From an uncultured Actinomycetes bacterium (lineage in GTDB: Bacteria; Actinomycetota; UBA4738; HRBIN12): a DNA stretch of 64,000 bases. The notes under the pieces are model-generated. The model did not search any database. It had not been told where the DNA came from and saw only the letters and a program-made list of their open reading frames with translations. The position numbers and the translations under genes are program-made. Shown here one piece after another: positions 43,841 through 50,694 of this stretch (positions are counted from its first letter, which is position 1; each line of letters begins with the position of its first letter). The DNA lies in assembly GCA_963799625.1 (NCBI GenBank), contig CAWCXU010000001.1:57979-121978 (forward strand), in the 5' to 3' direction.

Positions 43841-46429
<2,589 letters not shown>

Positions 46430-46726
46430 TCAGGCGGTCGCCGAGTGGTCGGCGGCGTCGCCGATCTGGGCGACGAGGAGCGAGAGGTCGATCAGGGTCC
46501 GGCTCTGCGACACGCCGTCGACAACACTGTCGACGGTAACCGCCTCGATGTCGAGCGCGCGCCCGGTCGGGCGGATGCCGAGCCTCGGGACGCCTCGAAC
46601 ATTCCGGCCCGTGATCCGCCAGTAGGAGAGGATGGAGCCGTTCCGGGACTCCATCCTCTCGAGCCAGATCCTTGGTTCAGCCAGCGCGCGAAGGAGCTCG
46701 TCTCGGATGTCACGGCGCATGCGCAT
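46430..46726 (-). CDS. 98-aa hypothetical protein behind a terminator-containing leader
   Basis: AAGGAGG SD 5 nt before ATG 46726; stop abuts the clpB stop. Confidence 0.6.
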   Translation of the reverse strand: MRMRRDIRDELLRALAEPRIWLERMESRNGSILSYWRITGRNVRGVPRLGIRPTGRALDIEAVTVDSVVDGVSQSRTLIDLSLLVAQIGDAADHSATA

Positions 46727-46739
46727 GAACCCCTCCTTG

Positions 46740-46775
46740 AAAAGGAAAAGGTCGCGCCGCCGATGCGTCGCGACC
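46740..46775 (-). terminator. Intrinsic terminator directly upstream of the SD of the 98-aa gene
   Basis: GGTCGCG-A-CGC-ATCG-GCG-G-CGCGACC followed by TTTTCCTTTT. Confidence 0.7.
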
Positions 46776-46815
46776 TCCAGTTGGCTGGTCAGTGCTTGTC
46801 TTCGATTGTCGCCCG

Positions 46816-46845
46816 ATCGTACCCGTCGTGCCGGAGCCGGGTCAA
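46816..46845 (-). promoter_or_regulatory. Sigma-70-type promoter
   Basis: TTGACC-18 nt-TACGAT on the minus strand. Confidence 0.55.
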
Positions 46846-46890
46846 CGGTGCGAAGGACGTCGCGACAACTTCGTCACGTCGCGCGTGGCC

Positions 46891-49800
46891 TTATTCCGAG
46901 CCGAGGAACGCGCGGACCTTCGCGGCCGTCACGACGTCGCCCTTGCGCTCGTAGATCCCGAGTGCCTCCCGTCCCGTCTCGGCGGCCTCGGTCTCGGCGC
47001 CCGTATCCCGTAACGCGCTGGCGAGCGAGAACATGGCGGAGCCTCGGGTCAAGACCCAGTTCTCGTCGATGTCCTCCAGGAGCGAACGCAGGCTACGGAC
47101 GGCTTCGTCCGAGCGACCCCGCGCCCGAAGGACCTCTGCCCGACAGAAGGCCGAGCGGCTGATCCAGTCGCTCGATCGTTCGAGTCGCGTCACCGTGGTC
47201 GCAGCCTCATCGATCTTGCCCTGGGCGACCAGCGCGAACGTCAAGAGTCGGAGCTCCTCGTGGAGCCAGTTCCCCCCAGCGTTGATCCGCTCGAGACCCT
47301 CGATCCCTTCACGAGCGAGCGCTTCGGCGAGCGCGGGGTCGCCGCCGATCAGCTCGGCGCTCGAAGGGCCGATCGTGCCACTCGCTGCGAGCCACAGCGA
47401 AAGTCGGAGCTCCCGGAACGTCGCACGTGCCCGCTCGTACACCGCTCGCGACTCGTCCATGCGCCCGTCCATCGCCAGGAGCGAGGTCTCGGCATTGACG
47501 ATGATCGCCGCCTCCATCACCCGGTCGCCGTCCGTCCGACGTCGGTAGTCGGCGACGATCTCGAGGGCCTCGTGCACGGGCGTCGGTCCGCCATGCAACA
47601 GCCCACTGAGCATCTGGATGTTCTCGTACACGCCGCGGGTGTCTCCCGCGCGCTCACCGAACGAGAGCGCGCGCTCCGTGTAGGTCTTCTGCTCGTGCCA
47701 CGTGTTCGTCCAGAGGCCGAGGATGCTCCAGAGCCGTTGCTGCGCGAAGTCGTCTTCGTCCGCCTCGGCCTGGGGCATGAGCCGCTCCGCGAGCTCGAAC
47801 GACCGCCGGGCTGCGTCTACGCGGCCACCCCAGAGCTCCGATTCGAACCGGAAGAGCAACGCGTCGGCTACGACGCCGAGTTCTCCGCGCTCCATGCCGC
47901 GCTCGACGGCCTCGTCGAAGATCCGTTCACCGTCCTCGAGCCGGCCGATCTCGACGGTGGCGCTGGCGAGATTCGGCAGGAGCGCCAGCCGGTCCGGATC
48001 TTCGTCGGGAAGCAAACCGGCCGCGGCGCCGTACAGACTCGCGGCCGCGGGCATGTCGCCACGTGCGAAGGCGCGCGCGGCGCCTGCTGCTAGGCGCGCG
48101 GCGGCCCGGACACGCAACGCTGCCACCTGCCGGGGATCGCTCGCCGATGTCCGCGAGTGCGCTCGCTGCGCGTGCGAGGTGATCGCCGGCGAGTTCGTCG
48201 TACGCCGCCGAGGACCCGAGGCGGTCCGCCACCGCCTCGTGCAGTTCCGCCCGCCGGCCCTTCGGCAGCATCTCGTACGCGGCCTGAAGGATCAGCACGT
48301 GTCGGAAGCGGAAGACCTCGCCGTCGGGCGTTCGCTCGGGCCGCACGAGGTCTTTGCGTACGAGCTCCCGAAGGACGCCGTCGATGTGCGAGACGTCTTC
48401 GTGCAGCAGGTCGGCGACACCGGCCGGTTCGAACGTCCGGCCGATCACGGACGCGATGCCAAGCACGGCGCGCTGATCGGGCGGGAGACGGTCGAGCCGG
48501 GCGGCAAGCAAGGCGTGCACCGTGGTCGGCAACGCGACACCGCCGAGATCGCCGACCAACGTCCATGTGGTTCCGTCGCGGCGCAGCAGCCCCTCGTCGA
48601 TCATCATCGCGAGCAGCTGCTCGACGAACAGCGGGTTGCCCTCGGCCGCCGCCGCGATCCGCTGCTTCGCGTCGTCATCGAGCGTCGGATGGTTGATGAG
48701 GTTCTCGATCAGCCGGTCGACATCGGCTCGTGCGAGCGGTCGAAGCGACAGGGTCGTGGCACCCGGGCGCCCGCCCCAGCCCTCTCGTCGCTCATAGATG
48801 TCGGGACGTGCGGTGCACACGACGAGCAGGGGCGAGTCGCGCATCCAGTCGACCAAGCCGTCGAGCAGGTCCAGGAGCGTGGGCTCCGCCCAGTGCACGT
48901 CTTCGACCAACAGGACGGTCGTCGCGTTGCCGGCGAGCTCTTCCAGAAGTCGGCGGACGGACCAGAACGCCTCGCCCTCGGCAAGTTGCGTGTGCCCGAT
49001 GCCGAGGATGTCGGCGAGCCCATCGACGATGCGGTCGCGGTCGTTCGAGTCCGGCAGGAGCGCCAGGAGCGCTCGGCGAGCGGCCTCCGCGTCCGCGTCG
49101 TCGGCGATGCCGGCCTCCGCCCGCACCGCCTCTGCGATCGGCCAATAGGTGATGCCCTCACCGAAGGAGAGACACCGGCCGATCAGGACCCGTGCGTCCG
49201 GGCCGAGCCTCCGGACGAACTCGTCGGCGAGTCGGGTCTTGCCGATGCCCGCTTCGCCGGAGACCGTCACCAACCTGCAGGCGCGCTCGTCGACGCACCT
49301 GATCGAAGGCGCGGACCAGGTCCGAGAGTTCCGCGTCGCGGCCGACCAGCTCGGAATCCAGATGTCGGGCGACCCCCCGGACGCCGTGTTCGACGCGTGT
49401 GACCTTGAACGCGCCCTCGTCGATCGCAGACGTCTCCACCGCGTCGCGGACCAAGCCGAGCGTGGCGCCATCGATCACGATGCCCGACGAGCTCGCAGCG
49501 GCTGCGAGCCGCCGTGCCTCGCGGGCGACGTCCGGCGAGATCTCAGCTGTCGCGGCCGACACGATCTCGCCCGTCTGGATCCCGACGCCGAGGCGAACAT
49601 CGAAGCCGTCGACGCCCGGCGGCCGTGCCACGAGTTCGTCCGCAGCTGCCACCGCGCGGACCGCATCGTCCTCGTGCACCTGCGGGTGTCCGAACACCGC
49701 GACGACGTCCATGCCGTCGAGCGCCAGCACGGTCGCCCCCCGCGCGGCGAGCGTTGCACGCACGTTCTCGACGATCTTCGGGACGGTGGCCGGGATCGCC

Positions 49801-50694
49801 TCCGGGTCGGGTGAGGACCCGTCCGCACGGCTGATCGACACATCGACGGCCAGAACGCTCACGATCTTGCGCGTTGGTTCGCCGGCGACGGGTGGTTCGG
49901 GCGGCGGTTCGGATCGGGCTCCGGTGCTCGGGGCGAGGTCGATCGACGGGTCCGACGCGAGGATGGCGCTCGCAAGCTCGACCAAGCGCGGGCTCGGGTC
50001 GAGGCCGAACTCCTCGCTGAGGCGGGCGCGCCCTGCGTGGAACGCTTCGATCGCCTCGGCCTGCCGGCCGGTCCGATACAGGGCGAGCATCAGGTCCGCC
50101 CGTAGCCGTTCGCGGGCCGGATGTTCGTCCACGAGTGCGCGCAGCTCTGCGACCAGCTCGGCATGCCGGCCCGACGCGAGATCCGCAACGAGCCTGTCCT
50201 CGATCGTGATGAGGCGGAGCTCCTCGAGCCGCTCGATCTCGGCGCGGGCGAAATCGTCGTAGGCGAAGTCCGCCAACGCCGGTCCGCGCCAGACCGCGAG
50301 CGCCTCTCGGAACAGGACGGCCGCCCGTGCCGGATCCTGCTCGCCGAGCGCGGCTTGGCCCCGCTCGCGAAGGACGTCGAACCTGTAGAGGTCGATCGCG
50401 GACGGCGGGACGTCCAGCGCGTACCCCGGATCATGGCGGGCCACGACGACCGTTGCCGTCCTCGCCCATTCCGCCGAGGGCCTTGCGGAGCTCGGACACG
50501 TACACCTGGACGCTGTGCTCGGCGGTCTTCGGCGGGTCGTCGCCCCAGAGCGCGTCGATCAGCTCGTCGACGGAGACGACCTGCTGCCTGCGGAGGATGA
50601 GCATGGCAAGGAGCGCCCGACGCTTGCGCCCGCCGAGCGGGATGCGTCGGTCACCGTCGACCACCTCGAGTGGTCCGAGGATCCTGAATTCCAT
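46891..50694 (-). CDS. SARP/AfsR-type regulator: wHTH-BTAD-degenerate cyclase-STAND ATPase-TPR, split by three apparent frameshifts (about 50460, 49300, 48145)
   Basis: MEFRILGPLEV...LIDALWGDDPP (wHTH); IDLYRF...ALAVWRGPALAD (BTAD); VHEDDAVRAV...GIQTGE (cyclase-like); VSGEAGIGKTRL, LLVEDVHWAE (STAND); TPR-like tail. Confidence 0.82.

Follow-up and report, generated by a model that had tools for sequence, protein, structure and literature searches.

A sulfur-linked leader of putative antiterminator type, combining a small hairpin with an intrinsic terminator, precedes a half-SnoaL gene in an uncultured actinobacterium

A 64,000-nt stretch of DNA from an uncultured Actinomycetes bacterium (GCA_963799625.1, contig CAWCXU010000001.1; hereafter the window, and its genome G000) carries, on the minus strand, a promoter, a ~70-nt leader and an intrinsic terminator in front of a 98-codon gene, and this arrangement belongs to a little-known family of leaders in which a small hairpin is predicted to compete with a transcription stop signal. 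The core is a 21-nt hairpin (ACU-GA-CCAG-loop-CUGG-A-GGU), where the last three bases are also the first three of the terminator. In this group of soil Actinomycetota the same hairpin plus terminator, usually of the form GCUGA...AGGC, precedes sulfur-uptake genes, while the copy in the window precedes a small gene of unknown function. The element matches the "ssuB-ABC-leader" of Bacillus (Naville & Gautheret 2010, PMC2965389), which has been described only computationally, with covarying stems. The leader is most likely a factor-dependent antiterminator of a sulfur regulon, and the small protein YezD (DUF2292, PF10055) is a candidate factor, on genomic association only.

The leader and its gene

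Every element named in the original prediction, which was made from the sequence alone, was found at the place given for it (Table 1), and the observation is thus confirmed. The promoter is the only sigma-70-like site within 2.5 kb (45.5–48 kb of the window), against 0.0 ± 0.2 expected in shuffled sequences, while the transcription start site (TSS) is inferred from the conserved promoter only. The leader folds at −33 kcal/mol (z = −2.0). A simple terminator scan missed the terminator hairpin because of its internal A.G mismatch, whereas direct folding gives a 10-bp stem of −17.2 kcal/mol. A covariance-model scan of positions 45000–48500 against Rfam 15 gave no hit on the leader even at E up to 10. 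A leader peptide is not supported, as there is no in-frame ATG, GTG or TTG between the in-frame stop upstream and the ATG of the ORF that follows the Shine-Dalgarno sequence (SD), and a 25-codon uORF exists only in genome G001. The leader also does not fit an ANTAR dual-hexaloop target, which has two tandem hairpins with 6-nt loops, the second overlapping the terminator, as it contains a single hairpin, the loop of which varies in sequence and is 3–5 nt long in the family.

Table 1. Coordinates of the features. Positions are those of the window unless a locus is given; G numbers denote genomes, C13 a contig of G000, and L numbers individual loci
Feature	Location	Strand	Sequence or description
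Upstream regulator gene	46891–50444 (frames 49158–50444, 47927–49471, 46891–48126)	−	BTAD, AAA_16 and MalT-like TPR domains
Stop codon of the upstream gene	46893–46891	−	
Upstream box	46877–46860	−	GTGACGA-AGTT-GTCGCGA, 14 nt upstream of the −35
Promoter	46845–46816	−	TTGACC-N18-TACGAT, sigma-70 type
−35	46845–46840	−	TTGACC
−10	46821–46816	−	TACGAT, after an 18-nt spacer
Predicted TSS	near 46809	−	inferred
5' extension	46809–46794	−	ACAAUCGAAGACAAGC, single-stranded
Core hairpin	46793–46773	−	ACU-GA-CCAG-CCAA-CUGG-A-GGU; 3-bp lower stem, GA//A internal loop, 4-bp upper stem, variable loop
Upper stem and loop	46788–46777 (46788–46785 / 46780–46777)	−	CCAG-CCAA-CUGG
Bases shared by hairpin and terminator	46775–46773	−	GGU
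Terminator with U-tract	46775–46740	−	
Terminator stem	46775–46750	−	GGUCGCG-A-CGC-AUCG-GCG-G-CGCGACC, 10 bp
U-tract	46749–46740	−	UUUUCCUUUU
Shine-Dalgarno sequence	46738–46732	−	AAGGAGG, 5 nt before the ATG
98-aa gene (P0001)	46726 (ATG) to 46430	−	half SnoaL/NTF2-like
Abutting stop codons	46427–46432	− / +	TGA of the 98-aa gene (−) and TAA of the convergent clpB (+)
Second hairpin copy in G000	C13:322327–322410		before a 139-aa PRC-barrel gene
Third hairpin copy in G000	C13:1037250–1037310		before a yezD-ABC ATPase locus
PF10055 (yezD) match in G000	C13:1037004–1037087 (within C13:1036800–1037250; L164/L249)		directly downstream of the third copy
Upstream box, PRC-barrel class	L163 about 1640–1660	−	
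PRC-barrel genes behind the leader	L163:1034–1453	−	roughly 140 aa, N-terminal CC motif
	L196:1628–2047		
	L217:1662–2105		
Tandem 5' half-hairpins	L199:1490–1535; L223:1501–1540		GGCUGACCAGAC
Long-form leader	L002:1455–1500		
Further hairpin copy in G035	L259:6047	+	UGACCGGACCUCCGGAGGCC, before sbp-cysT-cysA

The 98-aa gene is real and, contrary to the original prediction, not an orphan. Its GC content by codon position (0.67/0.50/0.88) is typical of real genes here. Pfam gives a sub-threshold match to SnoaL (profile positions 50–126 of 126), while a profile of 14 homologs matches residues 64–141 of 146 of a SnoaL-like cyclase (PDB 3kkg) with E 7e-8. The protein thus corresponds to the C-terminal two-thirds of a SnoaL/NTF2-like "ester cyclase" fold and lacks the N-terminal helices. 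Homologs occur in 5 of 38 genomes of the genus and in none of the other 185 genomes of the family, as well as in 16 protein clusters and 24 soil-metagenome loci. The leader is not the decayed N-terminal half of a longer SnoaL gene, as the frame is open for 49 codons upstream but has no start codon and a translation unlike SnoaL, while the region is conserved as RNA structure with loop indels. The stop codons of the gene and of clpB abut with no intergenic base, and neither gene has a terminator of its own there.

All 29 loci encoding a homolog of the protein carry the same unit upstream, which comprises the box, TTGACC-N18-TAnnnT, CACAACCGAAGACGAGCACUG, ACCAG-loop-CUGG-A-GGUCGCG, a covarying upper stem, CGCGRCC and a U-rich tail. 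The arrangement is far more than chance. Proteins are mostly 33–66% identical (one near-identical metagenome copy, L138, 98%), while the leader core is almost invariant. The tail is followed either directly by the SD (short form, as in the window) or by 40–80 further nucleotides (long form; L002, L139, L142 and L150, and also L163 of the PRC-barrel class), which end in an invariant GCUCGAC(C) about 10 nt before the SD. No covarying partner of this stretch was found, and it may be a second layer of control, possibly translational. Pairing of the region after the −10 (GGUCGAGC) with the conserved GCUCGACC before the SD in long-form leaders was rejected, as the upstream partner varies without compensation. 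The 5' extension (consensus in relatives CACAACCGAAGACGAGC) is conserved in the leaders of the SnoaL-half class (class a) and partly (GACAAC) in PRC-barrel leaders, while it is absent from the other classes. Its pairing (CGAAGA) with the U-rich tail (UUUUCG) is possible in many copies, but the G-to-C variants are not compensated, and its role remains unexplained.

The upstream neighbours differ between loci, being a SARP/AfsR-like STAND gene in G000, a DrrAB-type ABC-2 exporter in L139 and L146, a divergent gene in genome G035 and other genes in genomes G025 and G001. The unit therefore belongs to the downstream gene. The STAND gene of the window is spread over three overlapping reading frames and carries at least two frame shifts, from either assembly errors or decay. 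The box consists of two 7-nt repeats at 11-bp spacing (GTGrCGA-N4-GTyGCGA), lies 13–15 nt upstream of the −35 and at a fixed distance from it in all class-a loci, and occurs only in the SnoaL-half class and, in the form GTGGCGA-GGTC-GTGGCGA, the PRC-barrel class. It is a candidate activator or repressor site, inferred from sequence only, and would give control at initiation as well as at termination.

Distribution, target genes and structure of the hairpin family

A covariance model built from 23 leaders (R1) finds two further copies in G000, the first of which has its own TTGACC/TAGGGT promoter and box. The model hits 24 of 38 genomes of the genus and 66 of 151 of the family, while a broader model (R2) hits 76 of 151 genomes of the class. 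These tallies include unpublished genomes (G041, G059, G070, G084, G176, G177, G178, G204, G230 and G255), on which no sequence-level statement rests. The copy before sbp-cysT-cysA in G035 was not listed by the genus-wide model search, so the counts of copies per genome are lower bounds. In a phylum sample of 151 genomes, true hits are confined to the same order, as three hits of R2 outside it (28–30 bits) are, on inspection, ordinary terminators at gene ends. A pattern scan of all species genomes for the hairpin plus the first stem was too loose, giving at least 120 hits, 120 of which the covariance model scored at 16–25 bits over the pattern part only, so they are chance matches.

The copies precede SsuA-type NMT1 lipoproteins (binding proteins), usually directly after a yezD gene; yezD followed by an SsuB-like ATPase; a 395-aa Na_Pi_cotrans-family permease that heads the yezD-ssu cluster; Sbp-CysT-CysA sulfate ABC genes; a sulfite-oxidase-family enzyme; a recurrent family of PRC-barrel proteins of unknown function with a CC motif; and the half-SnoaL protein. 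The common theme is sulfur acquisition, although the gene in the window has no known sulfur function and its neighbours are otherwise unrelated. In G035 a 10-kb island reads SsuC, YezD, [motif] Na/Pi-like, TauE-like, [motif] Sbp-CysT-CysA, and is followed, convergently and 190 nt from cysA, by the half-SnoaL gene with its own leader. In two genomes the 5' half of the hairpin is duplicated in tandem just before the complete hairpin.

In 77 copies aligned to the model, 98.3% of cells in the small hairpin and the terminator are paired and 7 of 14 pairs show compensatory changes, which none of 500 shuffles reaches, while slid controls pair at 27–49%; this alignment was fitted to the model and thus leans towards it, and related genomes are not independent. 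RNAalifold also proposed an extension of the small hairpin, where the three bases before GA pair with the three bases after the A. Counted directly on 75 copies, the outer pair of this lower stem is G-C in 52, A-U in 20 (the SnoaL class), G.U in 2 and A.C in 1; the middle pair is C-G in 73, U-A in 1 and A.G in 1; the inner pair is U.G in 66 and C-G in 7; and the third pair of the upper stem is A-U in 67, G-C in 5 and G.U in 2. In a different actinobacterial family, the two yezD-positive genomes carry GUC-GA-CCGG-loop-CCGG-A-GAC 65–75 nt after the yezD stop and before an SsuA-like lipoprotein gene, which is a full compensatory change of the lower stem. The terminator has a median of 11 bp and −22 kcal/mol, with 4–6 U in the next 8 nt in 63 of 75 copies.

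A TTGAC[CAG]-N17-18-TAnnnT promoter precedes the hairpin at a fixed distance in 63 of 75 copies, while the spacer sequence varies, and this is the evidence for the predicted TSS. The −10 ends 9–15 nt before the hairpin in most classes, which puts the predicted RNA 5' end 2–8 nt before it, while in the SnoaL and PRC-barrel classes, which keep the extra unpaired stretch, the distance is 19–24 nt.

Proposed mechanism and alternative readings

The original prediction of a cis-acting leader (riboswitch, attenuator or sRNA), where the gene can be expressed from this promoter only by antitermination, is supported, and the comparative evidence favours an attenuator, although the element is not private to this gene. 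In the proposed mechanism, the 21-nt hairpin forms first, but by default the more stable terminator wins, a ~65-nt RNA is released and the 98-aa gene stays off. A trans-acting factor holding the whole hairpin closed would prevent the base of the terminator from pairing next to the U-tract, and RNA polymerase would then read through into the SD and the gene. For the window, the terminator state (−23.6 kcal/mol) is 6.6 kcal/mol more stable than the state with the full hairpin enforced (−17.0 kcal/mol), so read-through would need help. In this order the hairpin and terminator overlap by only 3 nt (plus the A), and the competition is therefore weaker than in a textbook attenuator. As sister copies precede sulfonate and sulfate uptake genes, the signal is most likely sulfur limitation. 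The anatomy, the conservation and covariation, the multiple copies per genome, the association with sulfur genes and the co-distribution with yezD are established by the present analysis, while the TSS, actual termination and read-through, the response to sulfur and the identity of the factor are inferences. A conditional terminator of this family is considered likely and mediation by a protein slightly more likely than not, while YezD as that protein is a tentative proposal.

YezD is the obvious candidate on association, as 63 of 66 motif-positive genomes in the family sample have yezD, the 3 exceptions being MAGs that are 70–87% complete, and yezD is often adjacent to a copy. In the phylum sample both yezD and true motif hits are confined to the same order, apart from the two yezD genomes of another family that carry the variant hairpin. 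However, the same pattern would arise if YezD were merely a regulon member or cargo of the same operons, relatives are not independent, and 44 yezD-positive genomes gave no model hit. No solved relative of YezD was found, and its AF2 model (helix 20–35, beta-hairpin 39–57, pLDDT 81) has no match below E 2.5 in a Foldseek search of the PDB, which gives no structural evidence for or against RNA binding. The only yezD of G000 needs about four single-base frame corrections within about 130 nt to match its relatives, and the SsuB-like ATPase behind it is also split. This may be assembly error, since other genes of this assembly are also split, but if the breaks are real, the genome would lack the candidate factor while keeping three hairpin copies. 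The sequence GCGTAGCATC, 7–8 nt before the yezD ATG in L182, L183, L184, L194, L195 and L164, is invariant at all codon positions and could be a −10 element for a leaderless yezD mRNA lying downstream of the hairpin/terminator. It is possible, though less likely than not, that YezD is a new kind of small RNA-binding antiterminator which senses sulfur status and clamps the GCUGA...AGGC hairpin, switching on a sulfur-starvation regulon across several phyla, in which case the half-SnoaL and PRC-barrel proteins would be unrecognised members of that regulon.

A direct riboswitch, where the hairpin with its GA//A internal loop binds a small sulfur-related metabolite, is unlikely but would agree with an aptamer-like element overlapping a terminator and with copies before several unlinked genes in one genome, and would be a new class, as no Rfam class matches. 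The conserved part is, however, only about 7 bp plus a 2x1 asymmetric internal loop, the loop varies freely in sequence and length, and no pseudoknot or second conserved element is common to all classes; elements this simple are more typical of protein sites such as RAT. An independent small RNA acting in trans, or a 5' hairpin that simply protects the mRNA, with the gene expressed by constitutive leak, is also unlikely. A complete promoter-to-terminator unit of about 65 nt exists, class-a leaders keep an unpaired 5' stretch (CACAACCGAAGAC) that could be a seed, and in most classes the hairpin sits within a few nt of the predicted 5' end, but the unit always lies in the sense direction 4–80 nt before an SD and a gene across at least six gene families, the conserved nucleotides are those shared between hairpin and terminator, and the 5' stretch is absent from most classes.

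Binding of a repressor to the CCAG-N4-5-CTGG palindrome as a DNA operator, with incidental RNA structure, is very unlikely. The palindrome lies at about +17 to +37, and the box upstream of the −35 shows that protein-DNA control probably exists here too, but the half-site spacing varies from 3 to 5 nt, the stems covary between phyla (UUGG/CCAA, UCGG/CCGA, CCGG/CCGG) while the unsymmetrical flanks GCUGA and AGGC are kept, and the lower stem covaries with G.U pairs, which only make sense in RNA. Least likely is a plain terminator of the upstream STAND gene with a chance promoter match, which had been named beforehand as the outcome that would refute the prediction. The hairpin lies about 115 nt after the upstream stop codon in the same orientation, but this reading is contradicted by the retention of the unit in loci with unrelated or divergent upstream genes and by the paralogous copies elsewhere in the genome.

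The finding bears on how Gram-positive bacteria switch on sulfonate and sulfate scavenging at the level of transcription termination, a question open since 2001. The window adds that the same predicted switch is present in uncultured soil Actinomycetota, that it comes with a co-conserved promoter which places the hairpin at or near the inferred 5' end of the transcript, and that it has been recruited to genes with no known sulfur role. The 21-nt hairpin is a compact target with one concrete candidate partner, which, if confirmed, would define a new protein-RNA antitermination system and allow sulfur regulons to be annotated in many genomes.

Comparison with known systems

Terminator-embedded small riboswitches, such as HMP-PP (thiS motif) and preQ1-I, also have a very small conserved element fused to the terminator stem, but the leader matches neither these nor any other Rfam model, its loop is not conserved and no pseudoknot is evident. 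In RAT hairpins bound by the BglG/SacY/LicT antiterminators, and in the HutP and PyrR systems, a small hairpin with internal loops just upstream of and overlapping a terminator is stabilised by a protein so that transcription reads through. The present hairpin shares no sequence similarity with these, is shorter (21–23 nt) and has no implicated PRD-type, HutP or PyrR partner, while the candidate YezD has no known RNA-binding fold. The B. subtilis ssuBACD operon is reported to be regulated at both transcription initiation and termination (van der Ploeg, Barone & Leisinger 2001, Mol Microbiol 39:1356), which parallels the conserved upstream box plus hairpin/terminator seen here, and the factor acting at its terminator is not known to have been identified.

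The closest system is the "ssuB-ABC-leader" candidate attenuator (Naville & Gautheret 2010, Genome Biol 11:R97, PMC2965389), listed once in a computational survey, absent from RNA catalogues including Rfam, and left open as to mechanism by its authors; literature searches on YezD/DUF2292, OscA and the ssu leader found no other description of the hairpin. The leader of B. cereus, B. anthracis and B. thuringiensis reads ...GCUGA-UUGG-AGAAA-CCAA-AGGCAUUUUAUC...GAUAAAAUGCCUUUGGUUUUUUU, that of B. licheniformis ssuB reads GCUGA-UCGG-UCAA-CCGA-AGGCUCUUAUC..., and a second copy lies before an unrelated, unknown gene. The architecture is the same, with GCUGA, a 4-bp stem, a variable loop, the complementary stem and AGGC running straight into an intrinsic terminator in the leader of sulfonate ABC transporter genes, and the upper stem covaries between the phyla. 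The copy in the window differs in its actinobacterial host, in an A-U closing pair instead of G-C, in its conserved 16-nt 5' extension, in an overlap with the terminator of only 3–4 nt against 8 nt in B. cereus, and in the half-SnoaL gene that it precedes.
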